Notes: a model not told the origin generated them from the sequence alone. A DNA stretch of 64,000 nt from an uncultured Chloroflexia bacterium (GCA_963751345.1 CAVVUS010000022.1:32001-96000), one strand, 5' to 3'. Shown: positions 4,893-46,403, numbered from the stretch's first letter. Program-made: numbers and translations.

Positions 4893-7358
4893 TCAGTGCG
4901 TCTCCAACTCCACCAGAAGTGTGTCCGCGTCCGCACCCGTCTGCCACAACGCCATCGTGTCACTCCAATAGGCACCCGTGCGCAGCCAGAGCGACGTGCT
5001 GTCCGCGGGCAAGTCGAAACGATGCCGCTGGACGAAGACGTCCCCTGTGCGCAGGACCAGGGGCCAGACACCAAGTCCATCAGCGTTGGCCATGACATCG
5101 CCCTGCTCGGTCACCAGGTGTGCCACGATCGAGAAGTTGCGCGTGATCGGCGCGTCGACGACGCGCCACCACGTCTCCACCTCAAGCGTGTCCCCCTCCT
5201 CCACCGTCGACACGCCCAGGAAGGCCAGCGGCCCATCGACTAGCGCAGGCAGCATCGTCTTCGGCTGCCGTCGTGGCGCAGACACGCGCGTCACCAAGAT
5301 CAGCCGGCCCGAGCTCCGCGGGCACGGCGTACGCGAGGCCGGCAGGCATAGCAGGACCACCTCCCGGAAGCTGCGCTGCGGCCTCGGCGGGCGTTCCCGC
5401 CTGAGCAGGGCTCCCCGCCTGGGCGGGCGTCCACTCGTAGAGCGCAAAGGGCGAGGAGGCCCGGCGATTCAGATACGAGAACCGCGCGGGGGCCAGTGAG
5501 CGCGCAAGGAAGCCATCGGTAGCGACGGGACGCTGGTTCTGCGCTGCACCGCGTCCCGTGCGCATCACTGAGAAGGTCCCCATCGATCACGTAGACGCCG
5601 TAGGTCTGCCCGCCACCGGGATAGAGCCAGGCCTGCGTGCAGTCGAACCCCACGTTCCGCAGATCCGTACGTCCGAACCCCGTCTCGATGGCCGCCTCAT
5701 CCAGCGGCAGGGTAGGCGTGCCGCACTGTGCCACCCACGCGAGTCGAAAACGGCGGCACATCGTAGACCAGCAGGCTGGCATCGATCGTCGTCGCGGGCA
5801 CCCAATGGCGAAACCACTCATACGCGTACAAATCATCCGTACCGATGCCCTGGAGCGCGGACGCGCCGACCAGGTATCGACCGGGGGCCGGTCGGAGCGG
5901 AGTCTCAGGCGGGCCGGTGTAGACCGGCGAACCGCCCCCGTCACTCGCCGCGGCTTCGAATGCAGCTTCCTGACGCGCCGTCCTCTGTCCCCAGTCGAGG
6001 TTCGAGTCGGCCAAATACCGGTATCCCTGCGTTGGCCCGCCAACCAGGCCGCTGAAGAATGCGAGCTCATTGGGAAAGCACCGCAGGACCACAACCGCGG
6101 ACCAGAGCCCCAGTGCCGCAGGAACCCAGCGTCGCCACGGCGGCGCCCCGCGCCACCAGAGCGCGAGACCGCCCCCGGCGATGAGGTCGAAAAAGGGATG
6201 GATAGGAATGACGTGGCGGTACCCGATGTTCATTCCCTCGAACAACATGGCCAGGACATACAGCAGGGGAAAGACCAGCAGCCACACCAGACTCCGGCGG
6301 GTGCGAGGGGAAACAAAGAGCGTGACACCGGCGGCCAGCCACGCGAGTAGAAGCGGAAGGGGATTCTTGATCACGAAAGCCAGGGGAAAATACCACCATT
6401 GAGATTCGTAGAAGCGGCGCCCCAGCGCGTAGAAGACCGACGTATAGCCGGTCAGGTAGAACGCGCTCTCCCAGTAGGAGGGAGCCGGCACGGAAAAGGT
6501 CGTTCCCCCGACGCTTCCCCACTGAAACCCGTAGCCCGCCCACAGTATCAGGAGCGTCAGGCATCCCGCGACCGCGGCCTGGCGTAGGCCCCAACGGCGG
6601 TCTTTCGTCCGGTAGCCCCGGATCACCGCCGAGGCCATCACGATGGCGGCGCATGCCCCCCAGATGGGCCCTGAGATCTTCGACAGAAGCGTCGCACCCA
6701 ACAATGCGCCGGCGGCAAGACTCCACCGCCACCCGCCCGTACGTGACCACCGCCACGCAGCATAGAGCGCGGCCGTGCCAAAGAACGTGACCGCGATGTC
6801 AGACGTGGCAAGCGATCCGTGGGCCAGCAACGTGGGGTCGACGACCAGGCACGCCAGCGCCAGCAACCCCGCAGGACGTCCGAAGAGCTGACGAGCCCAA
6901 CGCGTGATCAGCGCTGCCAGCAGAAAGCTCAGCCAGATGGTGGGCATCCGGGTCAAGAAGACGGCACGGTCGAAGTCGGGCAGAACCTGCAGGAAGCTCT
7001 CGGCGAAGCGATCGAAGCCATCGGGCCATCCAGGAAGCGTCGTCACGGGAAGGCGGGGGCTCTCCAGCAGGAGCATGCAGCCATCAAGGATGGGAGCCAA
7101 CGGAGGATAGCCGCGCTGGGCAAGCATCTCCAGCGCCGCCGGTCCATCCTCCAACATAGCATAACCGCCGGCCACGTAAGCCGGCTCGTCAGCAGTATAG
7201 GAAAGCGCCCCTGCGCCCAACGTGAGCAATGCGAAGAATGTCAGTAGGAATGCCCAGCTCACACTGAGGACCGGGATCGAGCTCCCCGCTCTCAATCGGT
7301 CGTTCGTGTCCACATCGATCCTTAACGCAATCATGATAGCACATTTGCGGTGAGTCAA
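4893..7358 (-). CDS. GT-C glycosyltransferase (GT39/ArnT-PMT-like), multi-TM, several frameshifts; start approximate
   Basis: TADEPAY, YPPL, DPTLLAHGSLATSD, SKIS, NIGYRH, ADSNLDWGQ. The extracytoplasmic C-terminus continues in ORFs 5300..6094 and 4893..5447 (FSIVAHLV...NADGLG...LRTGAY). Confidence 0.8.
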
Positions 7359-7478
7359 CTTTGCGGGGATTCGGCAAGCCCAGCGGCTAACAGTCGTAAC
7401 CGCACCTGATTGCCCTTGCCGTGATCGGGGGTAGGATGAACGAAGTCAACCGCCCGAACCTACGCCGGGGAGAACTCA

Positions 7479-8436
7479 ATGGACAAGACAACGCATAAAC
7501 CTTGCCTTCGTGGGCAGCGGTGCATGGGCGCGGAGATACCATTTCCCCGCGCTGACCTACCTGCGCCAACACCCCTCGGAGCTGCCCGGCCTCGATCTTC
7601 ATCTGCGGGGCATCTTCAGCCTGGAACCTGAGACCGCCCAGGCTGTCGCCGCCGAGACCGGCTTCGATCGCGTCTACTCGAGCCTGGCAGCCCTTATGGA
7701 GGATCCTGACGTCGATGCCATCGCCGTCGCCGTGACACCGGAGGCCGCTGCCTCGGTGGTACTCCGTGTAGCCGCGAGGGGGGTCCCGCTTTTCAGCGAG
7801 AAGCCCCCCGGCATCAGCACCCGGGAGGCCAGGACACTCAGCGACGGCGTCACGGTGCCCAACGTCCTGGCCTTCAACCGGCGCTTTGCCCCACTCAACA
7901 ACACCTTCAGAAACGTGGTGGGTGCCATGGCCGACATCTATTACGTCGAAGGGCACTTCCTCCGCTTCGAACGCACGGATGAGACGTTCATGATCGGGAC
8001 TGGCATCCACTGGATCAACTACATGGAGTATGTCTGCGGCGAGATCCAGGACGTGACCGTCGACCGGTTCCCGAACCCCGACGGCACGTCGTGGAATCGC
8101 GTCGCCCACCTGACGTTCCCCGGCGGCGTGCGTGGCCTGCTCAAGGTCTTCCCATGCTCGGGCTCCGACATCGAACGGCTTGAGGTGCACAGCCCGCAGC
8201 AGTCGGTCTACCTCGAAGGCCCGCTATGGGACCAGCCGGGGCGCATCACGGTTGATCGAGGCAAGTCGCGAGAGGTGATCGAGACGGACGCAGAGCACCC
8301 TCTTCCCGAGATCGTGCGACTGGGCATTGTGGGGGAGTACGTCGAGTTCTTCACGCAGGCCTGTGCGGGCAGGCCGACCCGCTCAAACTTCCGGAACGCC
8401 GTGAACTCGATGCGGGTCGCGGAGGCAATGGAATGA
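7479..8436 (+). CDS. Gfo/Idh/MocA family oxidoreductase, probable frameshift just after the start
   Basis: Rossmann start INLAFVGSGAWA, DAIAVAV, SEKP, AFNRRFAP, GIHWIN. Confidence 0.85.
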
Positions 8437-17453: not shown

Positions 17454-17876
17454 CTACATATCAGACGCCGCATTTGGAGTGGCTTCGCACGCGTCCTCTT
17501 CCCCCGCATCTGCTGGGACCAGGAAACTGCCGACCTGGTTGGCAAACTCACGCGCGCTGATTGGCTTGCTGAGATAGCCATCGCAGCCGTAGGCGTCTGC
17601 CATCTCGGCGGCAAAGTCCTGGGGCCACGCCGTAACCACTACCAACGGAATCTTGGACAACAGCGACGACCCCTTGATCAGGCCCGCCACCGTCTGTCCG
17701 TCCAAATCCGGCAATCCCATATCGAGGAGAATCAGGTCCGGCACGGTGCTCATCGCCATCCGGAGGCCGCCCTCCCCGTCGGGCGCAACCACCACGCTGT
17801 AGCCCGCATACTCCAGCAGGCGTCGCATCAGTCGTGACTGATGCGGATCATCTTCCATAATCAAGATGGTTGTCAC
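17454..17876 (-). CDS. Single-domain response regulator (REC)
   Basis: ILIMEDD, LILLDMGLPDLDG, VVTA, YLSKP. The GTG start overlaps the upstream stop (GTGA). Confidence 0.93.
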   Translation of the reverse strand: MTTILIMEDDPHQSRLMRRLLEYAGYSVVVAPDGEGGLRMAMSTVPDLILLDMGLPDLDGQTVAGLIKGSSLLSKIPLVVVTAWPQDFAAEMADAYGCDGYLSKPISAREFANQVGSFLVPADAGEEDACEATPNAASDM

Positions 17877-18259
17877 GCTTCGACCTCCCGTCTTTCGAAG
17901 AAATGATCTACCTTGGCCAACAACTCGGCGACGTGGATGGGTTTCGAAAGGTAGTCGTCACACCCTTGGCTTAGGAAGCGCTCACGGTCACCATGCATTG
18001 CGGATGCCGTCAGCGCGACGATCCACGTGTCGCGGAGCCCGGGGTCCTGTTTCACCCTCGCGGCGATGTCCAGGCCGTCGAGCTCGCCGGGCAGTGCAAT
18101 ATCCAGCAAAAGCAGAGCGGGATGATGGGCCTCAAGCATGTCCCATCCCTCCGCACCTGTCTCTGCCAATAACACCTGGTACCCGTGGGAACCCAGGATC
18201 TTCTCGACCAGGCGACGGTTATGGTAATGATCCTCGATGTAGAGCACGGTCCTGTTCAC
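17873..18259 (-). CDS. Single-domain response regulator (DivK-like REC)
   Basis: VLYIED, LLLLDIALPGELDG, ALTASAM.GDRE, YLSKP. Confidence 0.93.
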   Translation of the reverse strand: MNRTVLYIEDHYHNRRLVEKILGSHGYQVLLAETGAEGWDMLEAHHPALLLLDIALPGELDGLDIAARVKQDPGLRDTWIVALTASAMHGDRERFLSQGCDDYLSKPIHVAELLAKVDHFFERREVEA

Positions 18260-18261
18260 GG

Positions 18262-20359
18262 CTACCTCGCCAGAATGGCCTCGACCTGAGCCAGGAATGC
18301 GCTGCGGTCGAAGGAGGATTTCGACCAGATGGAGGTGACGTTGGACGCCAAACGGGCACGCATTCGGGCGTCAATGTCGTCGTCCGACGTCACGACGATG
18401 ACGGGCGTCTCCATCGTCTGCTCACGGGTCCGCAGCATCACCAGGAGCTTCTCGCCGCTGACGTCCGGCAGGACAAGATCGAGGACAATCAGATCAGGCG
18501 GCGCCTGCTCTACCAGGGTCAGGGCCTCCGCACCCGAGTGAGCCTCGTAAACCTGCGAGCCGGGCCGCGTCTCAAGGAGGCGCCGAATCAACCTCGCCTC
18601 CGGCGCATAGTCGTCAACTACGAGAATCCGCTGCCGACCTTCGCGCCCAAACCTGCGCTCCGGCGGCGCGCCATCGGACGGCAACGCCGCCCGCGGTCCC
18701 TCCTCAACGATACCCACGACGTGGTCCACCAGGTCGCGGGCGCTGAAGCTGCCCTTCTGCCACACCGATGCGGCATACTCGTCGAGCCGCGCGCGTTCCT
18801 CCGGCTGCAGGGTCTTTGCCGACACGATCACGACCGGAATCTTGGCGGTGCGCGGGTCGGACTTCAGCACGTCCATCACGGCGAATCCGTCCATCTCCGG
18901 CATCATAAGGTCGAGGAGCACCAGATCGGGCTGGCGCTGACGGACGAGATCGAGGCCGTCCTTGGAGGAGTTGGCCTCAAAGACGCGGTACTGGCGGTAG
19001 TTCTTTAGGAAACGACGGATCAGCCGGCTGTCGTGGGGGTTGTCGTCGATGATGACGATCGTGGTGATACGCTCGTCCAGTTCCTCCAGCATCGTCGCGA
19101 GTCCCTCGGTGGGCCGGACGGCCTGCGATGACTTGACCGAGAGGTTGAGGATATAGCGATCTTCGAGCGCGTACTTCTCCGCGCTAAACGTGTGGCCGGA
19201 GCAGTTGACGACGACAGTCTCTTCGGATCCGATGATTCCCTGGTCCAGCAGCTTCTCGAGACCTGCGAATGCGACGCTTGCCGCGGGCTCCATAGAGATC
19301 CCTTCGACCCGGGCAACGCGGCGCATGGCGCGGAAGGCCTCCCCGTCGCCGACAGACACCATCGCGCCGCCGTAGCTATCGGCCGCCTGCTTGAGCAGGC
19401 GATACGCAAGCCCCGGATTTCCCGTGGCCAACACGGTGATCAGACTGTCAGGCTGTTCCACCGGCACGGCTTCGTCGAGCCCCTGGACCCAGGCACGAAC
19501 CATCGGATCGCACCCCTTGGTCTGCACCACCGCGATCTTCGGCACGTGGTCGATCATGCCTGCAGCGACCAACTCTTCAAACCCCTTGAGGACCCCCAGC
19601 GGCCCGATACCACCCGAGACTGCCTGAACGTACCAGTCCGGGGCGCCCCACACCGGCTGCGAGGCATCCCCCGACCTGGGCCAGGCTTCCGCGATCTCAA
19701 ACGCGATGGTCTTCATGCTCTCTTTGCACGGGATCGACTTGGCCCCGCCGTCGAGGGCCAGCCCCCGACGCTTGGCGAAGTTGGCCGCAACCTCTTTGGC
19801 CTGGTCATACGTGCCACTGACCTTGATCACCTCGGCATCGTAGAGCGCCAACTCGCGCATCTTCTCCGCGGGCACGCTGCTGGTCACAAAGGCCCAGAGC
19901 TTGATCCCGGCCCTGGCACAGTAAGCAGCATAGGCCGCGGCGGCATTGCCGGTCGAGGCCAGCACGATCTCGTGTACCCCGGTGGCCTTCAGGGCGCTGA
20001 CGGCTGTAGCGGCCTGCCGGTCCTTGAAGGAGCCGGTCGCGTGCTGGCGTTCGTCCTTGATCCAGATACCGCCGTGTCCGGTCTCTGCCGCCAGCCCCTC
20101 GGCCGGCAGTAACGGCGTGCACCCTTCGCCCATCGTGACCGGACGGAAGTCCGCTGGGAAGGGAAGGAGTTCCTCGTAGCGCCAGAGCGACATAGACCTT
20201 CCGCTTGAGCTCGGAGGGCCAGAGGTTCGCCAGGCGTCCCGTCTCGTATTCGGCATGCAGCCAAGCGCTGCCGCACGCCGTACACGTTGTTGTGTACGGA
20301 TCGGGCGGCATCCTGTGGCCGCACTCGAGACACCGCACAGCCGAGAATAGCGTCGTCAT
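18262..20359 (-). CDS. Threonine-synthase-like fold-type II PLP enzyme fused to two C-terminal receiver domains; frameshift near 20200
   Basis: N-terminal CLECG..CTACG zinc ribbon, GEGCTPL, TGSFKDR (PLP Lys), ASTGNAA, EPAAS. Then REC1 (IIDD, LLDLMMP, VSA, QKG) and REC2 (VVDD, VLDLVLP, VTS, SKS). The ATG overlaps the kinase stop (ATGA). Confidence 0.9.
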
Positions 20360-23300
20360 ACGCTCGCCTTCTCCACAGCGTCCTCAGCCGGTTCACCCCT
20401 CTCGGGGTCAACGTCGCCGACGGGAAGGCAAACCGTGAAGGTGCTGCCGCGGCCCACCTCACTCCGCACCGTCAGCGTGCCCGCGTGCATCGCAACCAGG
20501 TGCTTGGTGATCGCCAGCCCGAGCCCCGTCCCCTCCGCGCGCCGCGTGCTTGAACCATCCACCTGGCGGAAGCGTTCGAAGAGGACCGCAAGATTCTCCT
20601 CAGAGATACCCACCCCCGTGTCGCTGATGTCGATGCAGACACGATCGGGCTGAGGATCGTACCGCGCATGCAAGTGCACCTCCCCCTCCTCGGTAAACTT
20701 GATGGCGTTGGAGACGAGATTGTTGAGGATCTGAGAGAGTCGCATAGGATCCGCCATAATCACAGGCACGTCATCATCTGCCGACACGGAGAGCGTTACG
20801 GGCTTGGGCTGTTTATGTAGCAGCCCCATACAGTGAGACTTCGCTTCCTCGAGCATGAGCAGAACGGCAACGGGAGCCTTCGTCAGGGTCATCCGACCCG
20901 CCTCGATCTTCGTCAGATCGAGCACGTCGTTGATCAGCTTGAGAAGCTGCTGGCCGTTCTCGAAGATGGCATTGACGTCCTCATCCATGTCGGGTGTCAG
21001 CTCCCCGTCGATGCCCATCAGCATCACCTCGGCGTACCCCAGGATGGAGTTGAGCGGCGTACGCAGTTCGTGGCTCATATTGGCGAGGAACTCACTCTTG
21101 AGACGATCTACCTCTCGGAGACGCTCGGCGACGGCCTGGACTTCCTCGAAATACCGCGCGTTACGCAGTGCAATGGCAATCTGTCCCGCAAGCGCGCTAA
21201 AGACGTCCACCTCGGACTCGCTGAATCGCCCGATGGTGTCGTCCTGGACGTCAAAAACGCCGACGACTTCGTCACCGACCAACATCGGGATCGCCACTTC
21301 CGAGCGCGTCTCCGGGAGCAACGGATTGGGCATAAAGGAAGGTGCTGCCCTCACGTCGTTCACGAGGACGACGTTCTTGCTCCTGGCCGCTTCCGCGACG
21401 AGGCTCGGTCGTTGATCGAGCGCGATGGCGTGGCCCCGCTCACGCATAATCCGCCCGGCATTTCCCGAGCCGACACGCATGATCAGGCGCCGGCTGCCGG
21501 GATCCAACGTGTAGACGTGCAGATGATAGAGATCGAATCGCTCCTGAACCAGCGGCACGACCGCCTCCAGCAGGGCGGTCGGATCTAGAATCGCATTGAC
21601 CTGTGTCGAGACATCCGCCGCGGTGCGCAGCTGCAGGGCGAACTGCCGCAGATCGGCCTCCGCCTTCTTGCGGTCGGTGATGTCGCGGACAATCGTCGCG
21701 ACACTGATGGGCTCGTCTTTCTCTCCCCTGACGGAGAAGAAGGTCAGGGAGGCCTCAAAGCGGGTGCCATCCAGGCGGGTTTGGGCCACCTCGCCCTGCC
21801 AGCCTCCGGCCCCGGCAGCCGGCAGCACCTGCTCGATGAGCTTCACGACCTCCTCCTCAGGCCAGAGGGCAGTGATGCTCGTGCGCACCAGCGTCGAAGG
21901 TGACGCGTCGTCGCCGAAGAGCCTCAGGCAAGCGGGATTTGCATAGATGATCTGTCCGGCGAAATCCACCATCATGATGGCGTCCACCGCGTTCTCTGCC
22001 AACGCCTGGAACCGCGCGATCTCGCGACGCGCGCGCTTCCGCTCGGTGATATCACGTGTGATCGACACAACGCCCAGGGGTTCCCCCACTGGATCCCAGA
22101 GCAGAGCAGAGCTCCGCTCGGCGTCGAAGGAGCTACCGTCCTTGCGCAGCATCGTATACTCTTCGATCCGGCCCTGTCCGGATTCCAGCGCTTGGTACAT
22201 ATTCTCTGCCAGCCTGGACCAACCGGACTTTGTGACCAACTCCATCGCGCTCCTGCCCAGCAACTCCTCGCGCGCATCATAGCCGTGAAGTCGGAGGGCA
22301 GCCTCGTTCAAGTCGGTGATCCTGCCCATCATATCGGTCACCATGATGCCCTCGGTCATCGCGTCGAAGATCGCCCGCACGGTTTGAACGGCGCTTCGCA
22401 GATTCTCCTGCATCTCGGTCTGGCGGGCAAAGAGCATCGCGCTGTAGAGTGCGTTGGCAAGTTGTCCCGATAGGGTACGAAAGACGTCGAGGTCGGCCGG
22501 CGTGAAGTATCCGAGCTGATCGGATTGCACGTCGAAAACCCCGAGCACCTGATCGCCGATGGTGATGGGAACGGCTACCTCAGATCGTGTTCGCGGGAGC
22601 AGCATGTTGGGGAGGAAATCCGGATCGGCAGAGACGTCATTGACCAACACGGGCTCGCGGGTATTCGCCGCACGCGCCACGAGACTGTGAGGGTGATGGA
22701 GTGAGATTCGGTGATTCTGCTGCACCATAATGCGGCCGATCCGACCATAGCCGGCCCGGAGGACGAGGTCATCGCCATCGACGAGATACACGTGGGCGTG
22801 GTAGAGTGCGAATCGCTCCTTGAGAAGAGGAATCACGGCGTCCAGCAGCTTATCGGGATCCAGAATCGCCCCCACCTGCTCGGAAATCTCCGCCGCGGTG
22901 CGAAGCTGGACGGTGAAGTGCTCGCGCTCCTTCTCGGCCTGTTTCCGCTCCGAGATCTCCCGGGCGAAGACGCAGTTGAACTCCTGATCGCCGTATTTCA
23001 GGTAGTTGGCCGTCACCTCCATCGGGACCAGCTTGCCCGTCTTTGCCCGATACTCCGTATCAATGGTGAAGCGCCGCTCTGCCTTGACCTTCTGCCAGTG
23101 AACCGCCCAGACGCTGGGAATCATGTTGGGGTCGAGACGCGAAATCGCAGGCAGTGACAAAAGCTCTTGCTTCGTGTATCCGAGAAGCTGACACGCCGTA
23201 TCGTTGGCGGAATAGAGGCTGCCGTCGGGCCGGATCCAAAGGATCGCAGCCGGCGCGCCGTCAACGGAGAACTGTGTCAGGCTGAGGCGCTCCACGTAGC

Positions 23301-23904
23301 GGGCGTTCTGCAGCGCGGTCGCAATCTGACCGGAAAGTGTGAAGAGGACATCCTGTATGGCCTGACTGAAAGCTCCAACTTCGTCATCCTGGACGTCGAA
23401 CACCCCCAGGACCTCGTCACCGACCACCATGGGGAGCGCAAGCTCGGACCGGGTGTCAGGAAGCAGCGGGTTGGGAAGAAAGCCCGGATTTCCGGTCACG
23501 TCGTTCACGACGACCGGCGCCCGCGTGCGAGCAGCACGCGCCACGAGGCTCTGCTCGGCGTCAAGCGAGATCTTATGTCCGCGCGCCAGCATCTGGCGAC
23601 CCGGCTCGCCATATCCGGACCGCAGCCGGAGCTCACAGCGCTCGTGGTCGAGCGTGTAGACGTGAACGTAGTAGACGCCAAACCCCTCCTTGAGCAGCGG
23701 GATCACAGTTGCGAGTAGTTGCTCGGGATCAAGGATCGCGCTGACCCGGCCCGAGATCTCCGAGGCGGTTCTCAGCAGGCTGGCCAGGGAAGGCACCGAC
23801 CCTTCAGTCGACTTCAAAGCAGCGTCGCCAGGATGAGCAGCGCCATGGAATGCACCGGACGTGACCGTTGACGAAACGGCAGGACGATGACATCTCCGTC
23901 GCAT
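20356..23904 (-). CDS. Cytoplasmic sensor histidine kinase GAF-PAS-GAF-PAS-PAS-GAF-HisKA-HATPase; start approximate
   Basis: Three GAF copies (SLVA.AA...VNDV...F.PN.LLP.TRSE.A.P...GVFDVQ) and three PAS/PAC ending in REISERK, RDITERK, RDITDRK. H-box FLANMSHELRTPL, N-box NLVSNAIKF, G-boxes DTGVG and GTGLGL. No TM segment. Confidence 0.95.
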   Translation of the reverse strand: MRRRCHRPAVSSTVTSGAFHGAAHPGDAALKSTEGSVPSLASLLRTASEISGRVSAILDPEQLLATVIPLLKEGFGVYYVHVYTLDHERCELRLRSGYGEPGRQMLARGHKISLDAEQSLVARAARTRAPVVVNDVTGNPGFLPNPLLPDTRSELALPMVVGDEVLGVFDVQDDEVGAFSQAIQDVLFTLSGQIATALQNARYVERLSLTQFSVDGAPAAILWIRPDGSLYSANDTACQLLGYTKQELLSLPAISRLDPNMIPSVWAVHWQKVKAERRFTIDTEYRAKTGKLVPMEVTANYLKYGDQEFNCVFAREISERKQAEKEREHFTVQLRTAAEISEQVGAILDPDKLLDAVIPLLKERFALYHAHVYLVDGDDLVLRAGYGRIGRIMVQQNHRISLHHPHSLVARAANTREPVLVNDVSADPDFLPNMLLPRTRSEVAVPITIGDQVLGVFDVQSDQLGYFTPADLDVFRTLSGQLANALYSAMLFARQTEMQENLRSAVQTVRAIFDAMTEGIMVTDMMGRITDLNEAALRLHGYDAREELLGRSAMELVTKSGWSRLAENMYQALESGQGRIEEYTMLRKDGSSFDAERSSALLWDPVGEPLGVVSITRDITERKRARREIARFQALAENAVDAIMMVDFAGQIIYANPACLRLFGDDASPSTLVRTSITALWPEEEVVKLIEQVLPAAGAGGWQGEVAQTRLDGTRFEASLTFFSVRGEKDEPISVATIVRDITDRKKAEADLRQFALQLRTAADVSTQVNAILDPTALLEAVVPLVQERFDLYHLHVYTLDPGSRRLIMRVGSGNAGRIMRERGHAIALDQRPSLVAEAARSKNVVLVNDVRAAPSFMPNPLLPETRSEVAIPMLVGDEVVGVFDVQDDTIGRFSESEVDVFSALAGQIAIALRNARYFEEVQAVAERLREVDRLKSEFLANMSHELRTPLNSILGYAEVMLMGIDGELTPDMDEDVNAIFENGQQLLKLINDVLDLTKIEAGRMTLTKAPVAVLLMLEEAKSHCMGLLHKQPKPVTLSVSADDDVPVIMADPMRLSQILNNLVSNAIKFTEEGEVHLHARYDPQPDRVCIDISDTGVGISEENLAVLFERFRQVDGSSTRRAEGTGLGLAITKHLVAMHAGTLTVRSEVGRGSTFTVCLPVGDVDPERGEPAEDAVEKASV

Positions 23905-24001: not shown

Positions 24002-24029
24002 ATTCTAAAACCATCCGTGGATTTGGCAA
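24002..24029 (-). promoter_or_regulatory. Putative sigma70 promoter for the kinase operon
   Basis: Minus strand TTGCCA-N16-TAGAAT. Confidence 0.45.
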
Positions 24030-24048: not shown

Positions 24049-25134
24049 TCAGGGCGCCTGGAACACGAAGATGTACTCGTGCTTGAAGACATAGAAGCCC
24101 CCGGCAAGCGCACGATAGCGCCACAGCGCTTGCTGATCGCGTTTCGCCCGAGTTCTGTCCAGATTCTTGACGACGATGCTCTTGAGTGTGCACCCCTGGT
24201 CAAGCACGACCTGCATCGCCTGAAAACCCAACGGCACCCACGCGCTTCCCTGGTACTTGTCGCCAATCACCACGACGAGCACGTGCCCGGGCGCCAGCAC
24301 GTCCAGGGCACGAGCAACGACCGCGGAGAAGCGACTGAGGAAATCCTCCACCGTCGGTGCGCTGGAGAGATCCGCGCCTCCCCCGCCAAACCGGATAATA
24401 TCGTGGTAGGGAGGGTGCAGGATGACCAGGTGCGCTTTCTCGACGCTGCGCGCCGCCAGAGCAGCCTCCAGATCAAACGTGGCGCTATCGCCAACGGCAA
24501 TTTCGGTGCTGACATGGTGCGGGTTGGGCTCCTGTGCCACGACCTCGGCGGCGTGGGCTGCCACATCGGGGTTGAGTTCCACGCCGAACCCATTGCGCCC
24601 CAGACGCCGGCACTCGATAAGCGTAGTACCACTGCCCACAAAGGGATCGAGGACCCAATCGCCCGGCCGCGTGAAACGCAGCATCATCTGGTGTGGGATC
24701 TGCGGGATGAAATTGCCCCAGTACCAGGCCCCATGGGCACCGGAAGTATCCCGACGATTGACAATCCACAGACTGTCGGTCTGAATCTCGTCGTACTCCT
24801 GCCAACGATTGAGGTTGATATCGTTGAGCGCGCCGGTGCGTACCTCGTCGACGGCCCGCCGAAGACGAGCGAGGTAGTAGGTGGCTCGCCGCGCCGTGCG
24901 CGCCGCAAGGATCTGCTCCAGTTGGTCGAGCAACACGTCACGCCGGTACAACACAGAGTCAGCACTGACATCGGGCGGCGCCGACGGGTGCCAGGCCGGC
25001 GGTGCCTCGACGACAGGCGCGACCTCTACCACACGCCCAAATGCGACCACCAACTCCCGAAGAACCTGCAGCTCGGTGACCTCATCGCAGGCGTCGAACA
25101 AGCTTCTGTAGCTCGGATCTGGTGATCTGCACAT
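24049..25134 (-). CDS. Orphan N4/N6-type (TRM11-like) SAM-dependent DNA/RNA amino-methyltransferase
   Basis: GNFIPQIP, VLDPFVGSGTT (motif I), GVELN, ILHPPY (motif IV), KHEYIFVF. No adjacent endonuclease. Confidence 0.8.
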   Translation of the reverse strand: MCRSPDPSYRSLFDACDEVTELQVLRELVVAFGRVVEVAPVVEAPPAWHPSAPPDVSADSVLYRRDVLLDQLEQILAARTARRATYYLARLRRAVDEVRTGALNDINLNRWQEYDEIQTDSLWIVNRRDTSGAHGAWYWGNFIPQIPHQMMLRFTRPGDWVLDPFVGSGTTLIECRRLGRNGFGVELNPDVAAHAAEVVAQEPNPHHVSTEIAVGDSATFDLEAALAARSVEKAHLVILHPPYHDIIRFGGGGADLSSAPTVEDFLSRFSAVVARALDVLAPGHVLVVVIGDKYQGSAWVPLGFQAMQVVLDQGCTLKSIVVKNLDRTRAKRDQQALWRYRALAGGFYVFKHEYIFVFQAP

Positions 25135-25168
25135 AGGAGGTCTTGGGAGATCGGCTAACCATTCAAGT

Positions 25169-25196
25169 TTTATATCGCAGTTCCGGGTGGTGTCAA
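25169..25196 (-). promoter_or_regulatory. sigma70-type promoter for the methyltransferase
   Basis: Minus strand TTGACA-N16-TATAAA. Confidence 0.55.
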
Positions 25197-25380
25197 CCAA
25201 TGTATGATGGTGGGGAGACAGGGCGCGACGTTCCGGAGAGTCAACGTTCGAACTTCTTCTCACGGAAGTGGACAGAGCACGGGGCTGCGGTACACTGGTC
25301 GGCGCAGGTCAGGCTATGCCGACGCCGCGAGGCGTGTCGCCGTCCGGCGACCCAGCGGCGGGTAGAAAGGAACAACACGT

Positions 25381-30529: not shown

Positions 30530-30974
30530 TCACACCGACCGTAGGCAACTGCGATTTGCGGCTGCGGGTCGTCAAGTAAGAGGAACACTCCACCGATGAT
30601 ATCACACAACCGCGCAGTGACCAGAAGCCAGATGCCTGGGAGGGCTCACCTGAGCAGGGAATCACCGCCCTGCGTGACTTCTCTCGTATCCGCTCGACGA
30701 GGGCCTCGTCCTCGAGCCCCTCACCGACGGCCGAGATGTGGGAGGCATCGAACTCCGCCTGGCCCAACGCAGCCTCTAGCGGACATGCACCGGTGCGGTA
30801 GTCGAGGATGGAACGAATGCCGTGATAGCCCATCGAATGGCCAGCGCGCCCTTGCTTTTGGCCGGTTGTGCTAGAATCTTCCTCGGTTTGTTGCCGCGCC
30901 TACCATCAACCGTATGCCAAGAATACGACAGCCGGCTCTTGCGTCCCAGATGCTGCTCTACGGAGAAGACCGAC

Positions 30975-33527
30975 ATGATGACAAAAGACACGTTCGTGGT
31001 GATCCCCCACACTCACTGGGAAGGGGCGGTGTTCAAGACCCGCGAGCAGTACCTGGAGATGGGCCTGCCGATCATCCTGCGGGCCCTGCGGCTGTTGCGC
31101 CTCTACCCCAACTACCGCTTCGTGCTCGACCAGGTCTGCCTCGTGCGGCCGTTTCTCGAGCGACACCCGGAGGAGGCCGAGGCGTTCAGGGCCTTCGTCA
31201 GAGAGGGGCGACTGGCCATCGTCGGGGGCCTCGACGTGATGCCCGACGTCAACATGCCCAGCGGCGAGTCGTTCGTGCGCCAGTTGCTCTACGGCAAGGG
31301 CTACTTCCGCAGGGAGCTCGGTGTCGACGTCACCGTCGGCTGGCAGCTGGATGCCTTCGGGCACCACGCCCAGATCCCCCAGTTGATGCGGCTGGCAGGC
31401 TACTCCTCGTTCTGGTCGCAGCGCGGCGTGCCCAACGGCGACCTGCCCTCGGAGTTTCTCTGGGAGGGGCTGGACGGTACGCGCATCCCCTTCTACTGGC
31501 TGCCGGGGTCATATGCCATCGCCTACGGATCGCCTGGCACCATGCCTGCATTCGCGGATTTCATGGAACAGAGATACGCAGCCCTCGATGGACACAGCCT
31601 CGGCGCAGGGCGCGTGGGCCTGGCCGGCGCCGACGTCTGCCTGCCCGAGGAACATATCCCGGATCTGGTGGATCAGTTCAACCGGCGACCCTACAAGCCT
31701 TTCGAGATCCGCATCGGACTGCCTGCCGACTATGAAGCCATGGTCGAGATGCGACCCGAGGAACGACCGGTGGTCAAAGGCGACCTCAACCCCATCTTTC
31801 AGGGGACCTACAGCAGCCGGATCGAATTGAAGCAGTGGACCCGAGACCTGGAACGTCTCCTGATCACGGCGGAGGAGTTGGGCGCCCTGCTCATCTCGCT
31901 AGGCGACACTGTGGACAATGCGTCGCTGTGGCGCGCCTGGGAACCCGTGCTCTTCAACCAGGCGCACGATCTGATGTCGGGCGTGATGACGGACCAAGTG
32001 TGGGAGGATACCTGTCGCGGCTTCGACTTCTCCAGAAAGCTGGCTAACGAGGAACTGGATGCCCGGCTGCGGCGCCTCGTCGCGATGATCGACACGCGCG
32101 GTGAGGGTGTGGCACTCGTCGTCCTCAATACGCTGGGCTGGCAGCGCACCGACGTCGTCTATGCCACGGTCGGCTTCACCGAGGCAACTGCGGACGGCCT
32201 GGACGTGCTTGGGCCGGACGGAAGGACGGTCCCCGTCCAGGTGCTGGAGGCTGAGCGCGCCGACAACGGGGCCCTCATACGCGCAAAGGTGGCCTTTGTC
32301 GCGGAGGATGTGCCGGCCCTGGGGTATGCCGTGTATCGCGTGGTTCCGCGTCCGGGTGTGAGGAACGATCGCCCGGCACGCGGCGACAGCATTCTCGAAA
32401 ACGAGGTCTGCCGCGTGGAGGTCGACCCTGCGGACGGGACCATTCTCAGCCTGGTCGACAGGCGCTCCGGGTGGGATGCGATCGACGGCAGGGCCAATGT
32501 CGTGGCGATGGAGGAGGACCACGGCGACCTATGGGAGCCTTACCGCGGCCTCAACGGTGGTCAAGCCGTCACGATGAAGGAGCGCCATCCCGCGCCGCAG
32601 GGGTCCGCAGCGCTTAGCGGAACCGCCGGCGTCATCACCCACGGGCCGGTGTTCTCTGAGTTCTGCGGTGAGGACGGCAACCTCAGCACGCGGATTCGCC
32701 TCTTCGCCGGCCTGCCGCGGGTTGAGATCCATACCCGACTTCTCAACACCGACAGCCACGTCCGCTACCGGGCCTGCTTCCCGACCTCCATCCGCCACGG
32801 GACGAGCTTTCACGAGATCCCATTCGGCGCCGTGCCCCATCCCGAGGGTGTCGAGTGCCCGGCGCAGAACTGGATTGATCACGGCGACGGCAGCAAGGGA
32901 CTGGCACTGCTCAACCGTGGCCTTCCGGGCAACAACGTCGCCGATGACGTCGTGCTGCTGTCGCTCCTGCGCAGCGCCACCATCGGCGGGTACGGCTATG
33001 GCGGGGGCTACGAGCCGGGGATGGGATCCGACACAGGGCTGGAGCTCGGCAAGCACTTCGCATTCGACTACGCCCTGCTGCCCCACGCCGGTACATGGGC
33101 CGAGGCCGGGATACCCCGTGAAGGGATGGCCTTCAACCACCCCCTCATCGCCGTGACGGCTGCGTCCCGACCCGGTGTACTTCCGCGTCGCTGGGGTTTG
33201 CTGGAGTTGGATAGTCCGGGTATTCTGGTCTCGGCGCTCAAGCCTGGAGAGTCGGGCGACATCGTGCTGCGTCTGGCGGAGGCCGCGGGGCAATCGATCG
33301 AGGGGGTCAGCCTCCGGCTGGCGGTGGATGTGATCTCCGCCGAGGAGGTAAACCTGATGGAGGATCCCGGTCGAGCGCTCGTCCTTAGTGACGGGAGCGT
33401 GCGCCTGGACTTCGGGCCCTTCGAGATCAAGACCATCGTGCTGCGAATGGCCCACGGCGACGGGAGTGGCCCGAGGCTCCCAGATGCAGAGAGGCCGGAC
33501 CACGATTGCGGCGTCACCGGCCCGTGA
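30975..33527 (+). CDS. Glycoside hydrolase family 38 (alpha-mannosidase-like)
   Basis: IPHTHWEG, PSGESFVRQ, WQLDAFGH, EFLWEGLDG, NQAHD, EIPFG, SLLRS, FEIKT. Confidence 0.9.
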   Translation: MMTKDTFVVIPHTHWEGAVFKTREQYLEMGLPIILRALRLLRLYPNYRFVLDQVCLVRPFLERHPEEAEAFRAFVREGRLAIVGGLDVMPDVNMPSGESFVRQLLYGKGYFRRELGVDVTVGWQLDAFGHHAQIPQLMRLAGYSSFWSQRGVPNGDLPSEFLWEGLDGTRIPFYWLPGSYAIAYGSPGTMPAFADFMEQRYAALDGHSLGAGRVGLAGADVCLPEEHIPDLVDQFNRRPYKPFEIRIGLPADYEAMVEMRPEERPVVKGDLNPIFQGTYSSRIELKQWTRDLERLLITAEELGALLISLGDTVDNASLWRAWEPVLFNQAHDLMSGVMTDQVWEDTCRGFDFSRKLANEELDARLRRLVAMIDTRGEGVALVVLNTLGWQRTDVVYATVGFTEATADGLDVLGPDGRTVPVQVLEAERADNGALIRAKVAFVAEDVPALGYAVYRVVPRPGVRNDRPARGDSILENEVCRVEVDPADGTILSLVDRRSGWDAIDGRANVVAMEEDHGDLWEPYRGLNGGQAVTMKERHPAPQGSAALSGTAGVITHGPVFSEFCGEDGNLSTRIRLFAGLPRVEIHTRLLNTDSHVRYRACFPTSIRHGTSFHEIPFGAVPHPEGVECPAQNWIDHGDGSKGLALLNRGLPGNNVADDVVLLSLLRSATIGGYGYGGGYEPGMGSDTGLELGKHFAFDYALLPHAGTWAEAGIPREGMAFNHPLIAVTAASRPGVLPRRWGLLELDSPGILVSALKPGESGDIVLRLAEAAGQSIEGVSLRLAVDVISAEEVNLMEDPGRALVLSDGSVRLDFGPFEIKTIVLRMAHGDGSGPRLPDAERPDHDCGVTGP

Positions 33528-33597
33528 TGGGGCCGAGGACAAGAATCCATGATCTCGGGCAGGCATCGACTATTGCGGCACACCACAGAGGAGCTGA

Positions 33598-36513
33598 GTG
33601 CAGATGACGAACACGAGACAACTAGAGCGAATGGTACACGTGAGCGAGATGTGGCAGAAAGCGGCCTGGATGCGAATCCGCTCCCAGATAAGGTTCGCCG
33701 AGCACCTGGCGGCGACGGATGAAGAGCACGAGGCAGCGTGGCAGACCGTGGTCGGAGACGCCAAGGACGCAGCTGCGGAAGCCCTTGCGTCCGCAGGGGT
33801 CGACTGGCCCGCAGTGGTGAGCCGGATTGAGGCCATCCTGGCCCCGATGACGGAAGCTGCCAAGGCACGCACGCTTTACCTGGCGGGCCACGCGCACATC
33901 GATATGAACTGGATGTGGTCGTGGCCCGAGACGGTATCGGTGACCCTCGACACCTTCCGCACGATGTTCGACCTGCTCGAGGAGTTCCCCGAGTTTCACT
34001 TCTCGCAGAGCCAGGCCAGCGTCTACGCGATCGTCGAGACCTATGCACCGGAACTGATGCCTCGCATCGCCCACTACGTGAGAGAGGGGCGTTGGGAGGT
34101 GACGGCCAGTCACTGGGTGGAAAGCGACAAGAACATCGTATCAGGCGAGGCACTCGCCCGCCACATCCTCTACACCCGCGCCGCGATGGCACGCTTGTTT
34201 GGTCTGAGGCCTGAGGATGTGGCCATCGACTGGTCGCCTGACACCTTCGGTCACGCGGCCACCGTGCCCACCTATCTGCGTCAGGGCGGCGTGCGGTATC
34301 TCTATATGCATCGGCCGGGCATCGAGCAACAACCCGTTCCGGAGGCGTTCTGGTGGGAGGCTCGGGACGGCGCGCGCGTCCTGGTGCGCAACGACCAGAG
34401 ACGCGGTTACGGCGGCACCATCCAGCCCGAAAGCGTCATCGAGGCAATGGAGGCGATGCAGCAATCGGTGGGGCTCGACTTCGCCATGCTGGTGTACGGC
34501 GTGGGCGACCACGGCGGGGGTCCAACGCGGCGCGATCTGCTCGCCGCACGCGAGATGAGCAAGTGGCCAATCTTCCCCACCCTCAAGTTCGCGCCCACGC
34601 AGGCTTTTTTCCGCAAGCTGGAACAGGACGGCGGGGATCTGCCGGTCCTGCGAGGCGAGCTGAACACCGAATTCGCCGGGTGCTACACGACGCAGTCGCT
34701 GATCAAGCGCGCCAATCGCCTCGCCGAAGCGCGCCTCGCCGACACCGAATTTGCGGCGGTCGCTGACCGGCTCGCGACGGGCGCTGCCTACCCCGCCGAG
34801 ACCCTGGCCGAGGATTGGCGCCGGACGCTCTTCTCACACTTCCACGACATCATCCCCGGGTCTGGCGTGCGCGACACGCGCACGTACGCCCACGGCCACT
34901 TCCAGGAGACCGCGGCCAGCACGGCGGTGGTCACAACACGGGCACTGCGGCACGTCGCAGCGACCGTGAACACTGCCGCACTCAGCAGCGCCAGCGATAC
35001 CGGTGCGGCACTTCCGGCGTTGTTCACGTCCAGCGGGCAGGGCTCAGGCGCGGGAATCTATGCCGAGGAGGGGCGCATCAGTGTCGCGGACCGCCACGGG
35101 CTGTCGCCCGTTCGCCCCTTCGTGATCTTCAACTGCGACGGCGGTGGACCGGCACGAGGTGGTGCGATTGACCCTTTGGGACCGCGAGCCGGCCGGCACG
35201 CCGGTCCCGTTTCACAGCAAGGTCTTCGAAGCACGCGACGCCGCCGGCCAGCCGCTGGCAGCACAGGTCGTGGGCCAGAGCGCAGCGTGGGGGCACCAGA
35301 ACCAGACGTTGGCCGTGCCGGTGACCGTGCCCGCCTTGGGCTACACCACAGTCGTGCTCTCTGAGAGCATGGCGCCGCCTGCGGTCGTTCCGGGCGCCTG
35401 GCTCACCCGCCACAAGCACCACTGCGTCTACTCGAGCGTGGAGCGCGATGTGATCGGGCTGGAAAACGATCTGGTCGCTGTTGCCTTTGACAAGCAGACC
35501 GGGCGGATCGTCTCCTACTTCGACAAGGTGGCGAACGCGGAAAGGGTCGACGCCTCGACGGGTGGCATAGGCTTCGAGTTCAGCGTGGAGCGCCCGCATA
35601 CCATGACCGCGTGGGTGATCGAGAACAGCGGGCCAACCGAGTATCCGGCACTCCGGCAGGTCACCGAGGTCGCGGACGGCCCGTACGTTGCCGAACTGAC
35701 GTTGACCTATGGCATACGGGCCTCCACGATCAAGGCACGGTACGCCCTCCACGCGGGTGACGCCGCGTTACACATCGACCTGGAGATCGACTGGTTCGAG
35801 CGCGGCGATGCCGAGACCGGCGTGCCGAACCTGCGCCTGGCTGTGCCCACGGCGCTCGAGGACCCGACAGCGCGGTACGAGATACCTTTCGGGGCCCTAG
35901 ACCGGGCGACGGCCCGTGACCAGGAGGTGCCGGCTCTCCGTTGGGCCTGCCTCTCGGGCGCGTCGAGGACCGGGCCGCGTCCGTGGTTCTCTTCAACGAC
36001 TGCAAGCACGGCCACGCCGTGGATGGGGCGACGCTCCGGCTGAACCTGATCCGTTCGAGCTACGATCCTGATCCCTTGCCTGAGATCGACCGACACCTCG
36101 TGCGGCTGGCGCTTCTCGCGACCGAGGGCGTGCCGACCGATGCGACACTGATGGCTCGCGCTGCAGCACACAACCAGCCGCTGCTGGCTATCGGCACCGA
36201 CGTCCACGACGGACGGCTGCCGGTTTCGCAGAGCCTGCTGACCGTGAGTGGCGCCGATGCGGCGCTCTCCGGCCTCAAGTGGGCGGAGTCGGGCGAGGGA
36301 CTGGTTGTGCGGCTGACCAACTCAAGTGACGAGCCGGCTACCGCTCAAGTGGGATGTGCGGAGATCCTTGGAAGCTTGGAATCGGCGCAGGCGCTCGATC
36401 TGATGGAGCGTCCCCTCGGCGCTGCATCGCCCGCGCGGGCAGGCGCAGTATCGCTCACGGTCCCTGCCCACGGGCTCAGCACCTGGCTGATTCGGGTAAC
36501 CGATAACCCTTGA
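33598..36513 (+). CDS. Glycoside hydrolase family 38 alpha-mannosidase, frameshifts near 35135 and 35960
   Basis: GHAHIDMNWMW, SGEALARH, WSPDTFGH, YGVGDHGGGPT, HFHDIIPG, YEIPFG, LNLIRS, spread over ORFs 33598, 35144 and 35941. Confidence 0.92.
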
Positions 36514-46208: not shown

Positions 46209-46403
46209 GTTTTACCTCCGTCCTTAATCATTCCTGTCCCAGTATAAAGGGTAAGTATTGGAATGACATAAGAGGACGATAAGAATCGCGTATAAGCGTG
46301 ACGAGTGAGTTTGACGGGTAGCGATAGATCAGGAGGAGACGAACCACGAGCAGCCTAACGATGGCAGGTAGTGGCGGTCACTCGTTGCTTTCAGGAGGTC
46401 CGA

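Follow-up and report, generated by a model that had tools for sequence, protein, structure and literature searches.

A lineage-specific gene module in Anaerolineae-type Chloroflexota predicted to couple a two-component system to a threonine synthase-like PLP enzyme

The window analysed here is a stretch of 64,000 nucleotides from an uncultured Chloroflexia bacterium, with positions counted from its first letter, and the locus of interest is a row of four abutting open reading frames on its minus strand (Table 1), the second of which is open over 18262..20256. The close packing described in an earlier reading made from the sequence alone (the sequence-only reading) is indeed present, with an ATGA overlap at 20356-20359, a 2-nt gap at 18260-18261, and a GTGA overlap at 17873-17876. 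Seven promoter-like sites occur in the region, where shuffled sequences average 1.7. A GNAT gene follows the row and is possibly the last member of the unit; GNAT genes also follow two receiver (REC) genes in the related loci L004 (65% identity), L018 (44%), and L109 (90%), and no specific NCBIfam or PDB assignment was found for the GNAT protein.

Table 1. Features of the locus, in window coordinates.
Feature	Position	Strand	Basis or remark
Promoter-like site TTGCCA-16-TAGAAT	24002..24029	-	10/12 consensus match only; 144-nt gap upstream of kinase gene
Soluble sensor histidine kinase, 1182 aa	20356..23904	-	Pfam; GAF-PAS-GAF-PAS-PAS-GAF-HisKA-HATPase_c
N-terminal four-Cys putative zinc-ribbon segment of PLP enzyme	20195..20359	-, frame -1	ATG overlaps kinase stop (ATGA)
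Frameshift site, one base more than in-frame relatives	20201..20210		Alignment with L086 and L087; X1 contig
ThrC-like PLP enzyme body and two receivers	18262..20193	-, frame -2	Annotated as 643 aa from internal ATG 20193 (P0001)
PALP domain of PLP enzyme	about 19195-20139	-	PLP Lys codon 20023-20025
REC1 of PLP enzyme	about 18712-19065	-	Phospho-Asp codon 18910-18912
REC2 of PLP enzyme	about 18265-18633	-	Asp codon 18478-18480
Stand-alone receiver REC_A, 128 aa	17873..18259	-	Asp53 codon 18101-18103
Stand-alone receiver REC_B, 140 aa	17454..17876	-	Asp52 codon 17721-17723
GNAT acetyltransferase, 293 aa	16464..17345	-	Pfam; 108 nt downstream of REC_B

The kinase has the GAF/PAS architecture that had been proposed for it, as Pfam detects three GAF domains, three PAS domains, HisKA (936-1003), and HATPase_c (1052-1162), and its H-box reads HELRTP, with the phospho-accepting H945 encoded at 21070-21072. 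Its predicted solubility also stands, since no hydrophobic stretch occurs in the protein (the highest 19-residue Kyte-Doolittle mean is 1.26). The term phosphorelay, under which the operon had been described, is unsupported because no Hpt domain was found: Pfam detects none in the four operon proteins, and a PF01627 search of the genome (93.4% complete), which left Spo0B-like proteins outside its reach, gave no match at E <= 0.001, when 9 of 14 control genomes did give matches. Judged by its domain content, the operon appears to be a branched two-component system with one kinase and four receivers. The proteins of the four genes contain no HTH, GGDEF, EAL, or HD-GYP domain according to Pfam, as had been stated. 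However, the further claim that the PLP enzyme is the only output goes too far, because single-domain receivers can themselves be outputs and the gene row that holds the module in L004 also contains a REC-adenylate/guanylate cyclase.

Each of the four receiver domains exceeds the PF00072 cut-off of 30.2 bits (the two single Response_reg proteins at E values of 4.5e-24 and 1.2e-21), and the residues read from the translations agree with the earlier description in that all four retain the acidic pair, the phospho-Asp, the Ser/Thr, and the Lys. Among 120 family members, REC1 keeps the phospho-Asp, the Ser/Thr (119 Ser, 1 Thr), and the Lys in all 120, and conservation is looser for REC2 (Asp in 113, Ser/Thr in 115, Lys in 118). 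REC1 is the orthologous receiver across all architectures, and the nearest relatives of REC2 are REC1-type domains. On this conservation, REC1 would be a canonical phospho-acceptor. In L004 and L018 the corresponding slot is occupied by REC_A orthologues (50-62% identity). Outside these, REC_A is closest to the receiver domain of an L017 protein with the architecture REC-HisKA-HATPase; REC_B also has orthologues in L004 and L018 (53-65% identity).

The enzyme itself consists of a PALP domain (E 2e-66) and two Response_reg domains in Pfam, and has the fold-type II PLP fold with the SFKDR Schiff-base lysine and the STGN loop. The PLP lysine, the STGNA loop, and the glycines of VSGG.GP.G are each present in 120 of 120 family members, and the PALP part is invariant at about 150 alignment columns across 95 sequences. 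The AlphaFold model of the enzyme-REC protein has confident domains (mean pLDDT 87.4) separated by low-confidence linkers at 390-428 and 556-571, and the top PDB matches in Foldseek are threonine synthases (E 2.4e-25, TM 0.85 on the target). The N-terminal ribbon segment contains two CxxC pairs, and its modelled strands reach pLDDT 90-96, but its zinc-ribbon Pfam matches all lie under their cut-offs (E 0.003-0.009); C26 and C29 are present in 118 of 120 family members and C10 and C13 in 94-95, the remainder being gaps. The junction between enzyme and receiver at 19080-19150, which had been singled out for checking, is in frame and is bridged without gaps by independent contigs (X4 record 25 and X3 record 18).

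The domain content that the sequence-only reading gave for this protein is thus correct, but a single open frame from ATG 20359 is not present, as that reading ran straight across 20201-20210 and overlooked a frameshift there. The ATG of the putative zinc ribbon lies in a different frame from the PLP domain (the stretch from 20359 to 18262, at 2098 nt, is not divisible by 3), and a 90%-identical homologue, P0002, matches 20359-20195 in frame -1 with residues 1-55 and 20190-18265 in frame -2 with residues 57-697. Alignment with two genomes of the same genus places one extra base within 20201-20210, where both relatives read through, and a 97%-identical metagenome contig omits one base at 20204. 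The window reads 'ctc aagc gga' where the P0002 protein has L-S-G-R; the form 'ctc agc gga' for P0002 is a back-translation from the protein and not an observed nucleotide sequence. The single-copy dnaK of the genome has a similar 1-nt insertion, in a two-base run. Because the only dnaK shares this type of insertion, pointing to assembly indels, and because the same-genus relatives are in frame, the frameshift is probably an assembly error, and this is the most likely explanation on the sequence comparisons made here. A real frameshift would leave either a pseudogene or a 643-aa protein that starts at the internal ATG 20193 and lacks the ribbon segment. The extra base does stand in the sequence as given, GGAAGG lies upstream of this ATG at a spacing of 3 nt, the public gene call on the contig corresponds to the 643-aa form, and the read sets covering 20201-20210 all derive from strains other than the source strain. 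Nevertheless, the other 1.9 kb of the frame are uninterrupted and share 91% identity with P0002, and together with the dnaK insertion and the three in-frame relatives this makes a real frameshift quite unlikely.

The fusion of enzyme and receiver is clearly not restricted to this locus. The Pfam architecture and neighbourhood survey that had been proposed reveals a large conserved family: the best 120 homologues listed all combine PF00291 with PF00072 (643-799 aa), and a fused homologue is present in 40 of 401 sampled Chloroflexota genomes, including 24 of 24 in one family and 6 of 6 within one genus of another class. This distribution argues that the fusion is genuine and common rather than chimeric. 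As in the window, where the two genes share the ATGA overlap, the gene immediately upstream encodes a GAF/PAS histidine kinase on the same strand in 31 of the 33 other loci (15 of 16 in one set and 16 of 17 in a second set, the two sharing no duplicates), and the two loci that lack it, L017 and L103, each have a REC-kinase gene just downstream. A HATPase_c-PALP read-through protein in the database (P0134) reflects the same adjacency of kinase and enzyme. The other partners of the module vary and are an EamA transporter, GNAT, or a true thrC. Taken together, the family would represent a lineage-specific module of Anaerolineae-type Chloroflexota, namely a response regulator with a metabolic enzyme as its output.

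What this enzyme does depends on its relation to threonine synthase (ThrC). Neither the window enzyme nor its intact relatives reach the cut-off of any curated threonine synthase equivalog: the window ORF scores 225.3 against the NF006050 cut-off of 303 and 136.4 against the TIGR00260 cut-off of 167.1, P0002 scores 237.8 and 134.6, and the form in L010 scores 250.8 and 148.7. Cysteate synthase (TIGR03844) is no better a fit, at 120.6-128.4 bits against a cut-off of 324.9. Two other ThrC paralogues in the genome, L002 and L003, pass TIGR00260 with scores of 231.7 and 237.7. In a quick tree, the fused proteins form one clade (98% SH-aLRT) apart from both of these; the tree needs at least three label changes on well-supported branches, and four short REC-less proteins, three of them partial, nest within the fused clade. 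From these comparisons, the enzyme appears to be a divergent paralogue, distinct from the housekeeping threonine synthase, and the label "threonine synthase", which many databases give to the fused proteins, is probably wrong. The family also has invariant motifs of its own (GAK, KESMK, and NCSGHTFSAEK.ALEDRY) where ThrC has others, and these suggest a chemistry as yet undocumented in the threonine synthase fold. Residues T88, N154, S155, R160, and N188 of Thermus ThrC, which we take to form the substrate-phosphate site and whose positions were confirmed in the alignment, are replaced in the family by A (120/120), a variable residue, G (120/120), G/C, and G, respectively, whereas the genome's own paralogue L003 keeps the canonical residues. 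Such replacements might reflect an altered reaction or a role other than catalysis. However, threonine synthases that score strongly with NF006050 deviate at these positions as well, so that this argument is weak in either direction.

A genuine threonine synthase isozyme, with the kinase gating flux from O-phosphohomoserine to threonine and, in the relatives, with coupling to an RhtA-like EamA exporter of threonine or homoserine, therefore has to be weighed. It would account for the best sequence and fold matches being threonine synthases, for the EamA transporter gene just downstream in L017, in every one of the 11 single-REC loci that could be evaluated (L006-L016), and in 8 of the 17 further loci, and for the strong NF006050 threonine synthase gene (566-581 bits) that follows the module in 4 of these 17. 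RhtA and EamA, which belong to the family of the neighbouring transporter, export amino acids. Yet the sub-cut-off scores, the separate clade, the two paralogues that already pass TIGR00260, and the family's own motifs all speak for something else, and a neighbouring thrC fits a different but linked reaction equally well; an isozyme thus seems unlikely.

We consider it somewhat probable (roughly 0.55) that the locus is an Anaerolineae-type two-component module in which the kinase signals through REC1 to a divergent ThrC-like enzyme, with the spare receivers competing for phosphate and the frameshift being an error. The soluble multi-GAF/PAS kinase would autophosphorylate and pass its phosphate to REC1, which a long flexible linker would tether at the C-terminus of the ThrC-like enzyme with its putative zinc ribbon, and phosphorylation of REC1 would then switch the enzyme. 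In CheB, phosphorylation relieves an inhibitory contact, and in PleD it changes the oligomer state; either kind of switch could operate here. Competition for the same phosphate would come from REC2, which probably arose by duplication of REC1, and from both single-domain receivers, each acting as a sink, buffer, or side output. The enzyme would probably carry out beta/gamma chemistry of the ThrC type on an activated amino acid, and its product would be exported in most relatives (EamA) or acetylated in this genome (GNAT).

The order of the domains allows another direction of control. REC stands on the C-terminal side here, whereas in most response regulators the order is reversed, so the signal could run in the opposite direction. 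The PLP domain would then be a sensor or pseudoenzyme in which binding of an amino acid or PLP tunes the uptake or retention of phosphate by the receivers, and the protein, as an input or sink, would adjust the true outputs of the kinase, for example the single-domain receivers. Such a role would suit the enzyme-then-REC order, which resembles sensor-then-transmitter layouts, the two additional receivers without an output domain, the fusion of the REC_A type to a second kinase in L017 and L103, and the replaced Thermus-type residues. However, the complete conservation of the PLP lysine and the PLP-phosphate loop and the many invariant PALP columns exceed what ligand binding alone usually needs, and the tight linkage to a transporter, GNAT, or thrC fits a product-forming reaction, which makes a sensor role very unlikely.

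Among known systems, ThrC (TIGR00260, NF006050; PDB 2d1f, 2zsj, and 1uim) shares with this enzyme the fold-type II PLP fold, the SFKDR lysine, and STGN, and its putative N-terminal zinc ribbon resembles that of NF006050-type ThrC; unlike ThrC, its closest match in sequence and fold, the fused family carries one or two receivers, besides differing in clade, scores, Thermus-position residues, and motifs. Fusions of a ThrC-like enzyme with a LeuA allosteric domain (P0205, P0225, and P0236; about 35% identity), which to our knowledge are uncharacterised, belong to the same superfamily and provide a precedent for a C-terminal regulatory module, although their regulator is a ligand-binding domain and not a phospho-receiver. 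Cysteate synthase (TIGR03844; PDB 9k3c, CapA2) is derived from ThrC and has a changed chemistry, which shows that the threonine synthase fold can acquire new reactions; it lacks a receiver.

Literature searches found no description of the PALP-REC architecture, in line with the earlier statement that no characterised REC-controlled fold-type II PLP enzyme was known. The novelty is nonetheless narrower than that statement implied, because fusions of REC to ordinary metabolic enzymes are already a known theme (PMC5847659, section 14). CheB, PleD, and the fusions noted in PMC5847659 likewise combine a canonical receiver and a neighbouring kinase, and carry an enzyme instead of a DNA-binding domain; the output here differs in being a PLP enzyme of amino-acid metabolism, with REC C-terminal and often doubled. 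In Rv2531c, a fold-type I PLP decarboxylase, a receiver-like, CheY-like domain is joined N-terminal to the catalytic domain (PMC12329521). The PLP fold is thus another one, and the accessible passages of PMC12329521 name neither a partner kinase nor a phospho-acceptor site, in contrast to the full set of phospho-acceptor residues and the adjacent kinase found here.

If a receiver does gate an amino-acid PLP enzyme, this would be a clear case of protein-level signal-to-metabolite control and a new entry among enzymatic outputs. Nearly all response regulators studied act on transcription, second messengers, or chemotaxis. As a tentative and rather doubtful extension, the module might be a transcription-free two-component system in which phosphorylation of the receiver directly activates a novel PLP reaction yielding a non-proteinogenic amino acid. 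This amino acid might act as a signal, antimetabolite, or stress solute; EamA in most relatives, or GNAT in this genome, would provide export or self-protection, and a neighbouring true thrC, in the loci that have one, would point to a shared substrate pool. Anaerolineae are abundant in sludge, sediments, and soils, and the module probably serves an important physiological switch in them, since the fused family is large and conserved there, all members of one sampled family carry the fusion, and some genomes have two copies of the fused enzyme.

Proteins that join a PALP enzyme to receiver domains are a widespread class of response regulators, as yet uncharacterised, whose output is a fold-type II PLP enzyme. 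In the window, ORF calling gives four minus-strand ORFs, each abutting the next, to which Pfam assigns a 1182-aa kinase with three GAF, three PAS, HisKA and HATPase_c domains, an ORF with PALP (E 2e-66) and two Response_reg domains (REC1 and REC2), and two small ORFs with one Response_reg apiece. The kinase carries the H-box HELRTP and no membrane-like segment was found in it; no DNA-binding or cyclic-nucleotide domain was detected by Pfam among the four operon proteins. The gene order, junctions and domains of the sequence-only reading are borne out, as is its statement that the acidic pair, phospho-Asp, Ser/Thr and Lys are retained in each of the four receivers; the single open frame that it gave the enzyme gene is not, a frameshift having been overlooked. 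The kinase gene is preceded, across a 144-nt gap with a promoter-like site, by an N6/N4 DNA methylase gene, which is outside the conserved module of relatives. Elsewhere in the window, two GH38 alpha-mannosidase genes stand in tandem; the downstream one (588 aa) has N-terminal and middle domains only and may be truncated.

Positions of the features discussed, in window coordinates (P0002, intact homologue from the same genus; L086 and L087, same-genus genomes)
Feature	Position	Strand	Detail
N6/N4 DNA methylase gene	24049-25263	minus	
ATG of the zinc-ribbon part	20359	minus	ATGA overlap with the kinase stop
PALP-receiver ORF	18262..20256	minus	frame differs from that of ATG 20359
P0002 residues 1-55 (tblastn)	20359-20195	minus	frame -1
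P0002 residues 57-697 (tblastn)	20190-18265	minus	frame -2
One base fewer in L086 and L087	20201-20210		relatives read through
One base omitted in metagenome contig	20204		191-nt contig, 6 mismatches
Internal ATG	20193	minus	preceded by GGAAGG
2-nt gap	18260-18261		
GTGA overlap	17873-17876		
dnaK	44270-46211	minus	upstream of grpE and dnaJ
1-nt insertion in dnaK	near 45060-45070		'cttggccggc'
Two tandem GH38 genes	30822-35364	plus	

The enzyme-REC junction is in frame and is crossed gap-free by independent contigs, and these contigs, together with the fused homologues, rule out an assembly chimera at this point. PF00291 and PF00072 occur together in all of the best 120 homologues listed, which are 643-799 aa long, are named in the database as 'pyridoxal-phosphate dependent enzyme' or 'threonine synthase', and come, where a source is named, from Anaerolineae, Anaerolineales or Thermoflexales MAGs. 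When the phylum was sampled evenly, 40 of 401 Chloroflexota genomes (38 of the 322 of high quality) had a fused homologue (E <= 1e-80), including all 24 genomes of one family and all six of one genus in another class, with two copies in several genomes. One receiver is the majority form and two receivers the minority form; REC1 is the orthologue of the single receiver in one-receiver members (41-47% identity), and since the closest relatives of REC2 are REC1-type domains, REC2 looks like a duplicate. A search of 1.84 billion representatives returned fused proteins (51-60% identity), stand-alone proteins 380-435 aa long (40-54% identity) with the SGG.GP.G loop in common with the fused enzymes, and, at ~35% identity, fusions of a ThrC-like enzyme with a LeuA allosteric domain. 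A protein-cluster search gave 'threonine synthase family' clusters only.

The reading frame of the window enzyme requires comment. The PALP-receiver ORF is out of frame with the ATG of the zinc-ribbon part because the 2098 nt from 20359 to 18262 are not a multiple of 3, so that the zinc-ribbon peptide (MTTLFSAVRCLEC...) and the PLP domain (..SLWRYEELLPFP..) are read one base out of step, while in P0002 (697 aa, 90% identical) both parts share one frame. The tblastn frames of P0002, the DNA of two genomes of the genus (L086, the source of P0002, and L087) and the metagenome contig all agree, so the window gene carries a 1-nt insertion. This insertion is probably an assembly error, a reading based on the window dnaK, whose frame is broken by an insertion of this kind too: its frame 1 ends '...AIQAGVLG' and the sequence continues in frame 2. 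No second dnaK was found in the 5.4-Mb assembly, and an insertion in the sole dnaK found suggests that the assembly probably contains indel errors. A search of sequencing runs gave fragments of the stretch, with no RNA run listed and no run containing half or more of its sequence words, and none of the fragments from the identical strain spans the site. The insertion may instead be a real mutation; in that case the internal ATG would give a 643-aa form, which is also the form of the public gene call, P0001. A programmed +1 frameshift was rejected, as relatives read through here in one frame and dnaK has the same defect.

The surroundings of the fused gene were compared in a first set of 16 loci from species-representative genomes and a second set of 17 loci from 12 families, with no duplicates between the two. 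In 15 of the 16 loci and 16 of the 17, respectively, the gene immediately upstream of the fused gene, on its strand, encodes a GAF/PAS histidine kinase; in the two exceptions (L017 and L103) a REC-HisKA-HATPase gene is found just downstream. In many single-receiver loci, such as L010 and L013, the kinase is of the hybrid type and itself contains two receivers. The genes downstream of the enzyme differ among loci. An EamA-family transporter gene stands just downstream of the single-receiver enzyme in 11 of 11 evaluable loci (L006-L016; L005 ends at a contig edge and is outside this count), follows the REC-kinase gene in L017, is represented by a weak match in L047, and occurs in 8 of the 17 second-set loci (L097, L098, L100, L102-L105 and L108). 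No EamA gene was found in the window and no clear orthologue in its own genome, where the top match is 36% identical and on another contig. Two single receivers followed by a GNAT gene occur in the window, L004, L018 and L109; a specific family or structure assignment was sought for the GNAT and none was obtained. In L093, L094, L106 and L107, the gene after a single receiver encodes a threonine synthase with a strong NF006050 score (566-581 bits); it is on the same strand as the fused gene, some 2.1-3.6 kb further downstream, and ties the module to the threonine branch. Taken together, these partners (transporter, GNAT and thrC) suggest that the product is an amino acid related to the homoserine/threonine branch.

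Additional regulatory genes are seen at some loci. In L004, from a 71%-identical relative, the genes for the kinase and the PLP-REC-REC protein are separated by one for a REC-adenylate/guanylate cyclase (6737-7807 of that locus, plus strand), and a downstream gene on the opposite strand encodes a large cyclase-AAA protein. In L010, L013 and L016, genes for an OmpR-type response regulator and for one or two more GAF kinases lie convergently just past EamA (about 11.4-16.9 kb), and these may belong to the network of the module.

The top sequence and fold matches of the enzyme are threonine synthases, and the enzyme and its intact relatives fall below every curated ThrC and cysteate-synthase cut-off. 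The same genome has two further ThrC paralogues, L002 and L003, above the TIGR00260 cut-off; L002, whose gene on contig C18 comes straight after one for carbamate kinase, passes the NF006050 cut-off by a narrow margin (303.6 vs 303). The Schiff-base Lys, S-T-G-N-A and the VSGG.GP.G glycines are invariant in 120 family members, as is a junction motif, NCSGHTFSAEK(H/Y)ALEDRY. In an alignment with checked numbering, T88, N154, S155, R160 and N188 of Thermus ThrC, which we take to be the substrate-phosphate site and on which a literature search found nothing, correspond in the family to A, a variable residue, G, G/C and G, and L003 has the canonical residues; this difference is of limited weight, because strong NF006050 enzymes differ there too. 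A quick maximum-likelihood tree with a midpoint root placed the fused proteins in one 17-row clade (98% SH-aLRT), comprising 13 rows with REC and four short rows without it, three of them partial; this clade is nested in one of 28 rows, and that larger clade is separate from the 52 rows that include both of the genome's own ThrCs. An AlphaFold2 model of P0002 from a 95-sequence alignment (mean pLDDT 87.4, pTM 0.66) has confident domains and low confidence at residues 390-428 and 556-571, so flexible linkers appear to tether the receivers; part of the invariant junction motif falls inside the first of these stretches.

In the most likely model, the GAF/PAS array of the kinase would sense a cytoplasmic cue, the kinase would phosphorylate REC1, and the state of REC1 would set the activity of the attached PLP enzyme, with REC2 and the two single receivers drawing on the same phosphate. 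We infer this mechanism from strict conservation at three levels: the pairing of kinase and enzyme, the phospho-acceptor residues and the catalytic residues. A kinase-controlled enzyme, as proposed from the sequence, is a plausible part of the earlier interpretation; its term 'phosphorelay' is not supported, there being no Hpt domain in the operon and none found in the 93.4%-complete genome by a search that gave matches in 9 of 14 control genomes, nor is the view of the enzyme as the only output. The system is better described as a branched two-component system.

Attachment of REC to ordinary metabolic enzymes is a recognised theme (PMC5847659), and a receiver-like domain is known from PLP decarboxylases of fold type I (PMC12329521). 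Fusion of a receiver to a ThrC-like enzyme, or to a PALP enzyme of any sort, was not found in any paper by a literature search that did not extend to the 2010 response-regulator-output review or the supplementary tables of PMC5847659, which might list such fusions. The LeuA-domain fusions P0205, P0225 and P0236, ThrC-like PLP enzymes of ~620 aa with a LeuA allosteric (dimerisation) domain, represent another C-terminal regulatory fusion in the superfamily of the window enzyme.
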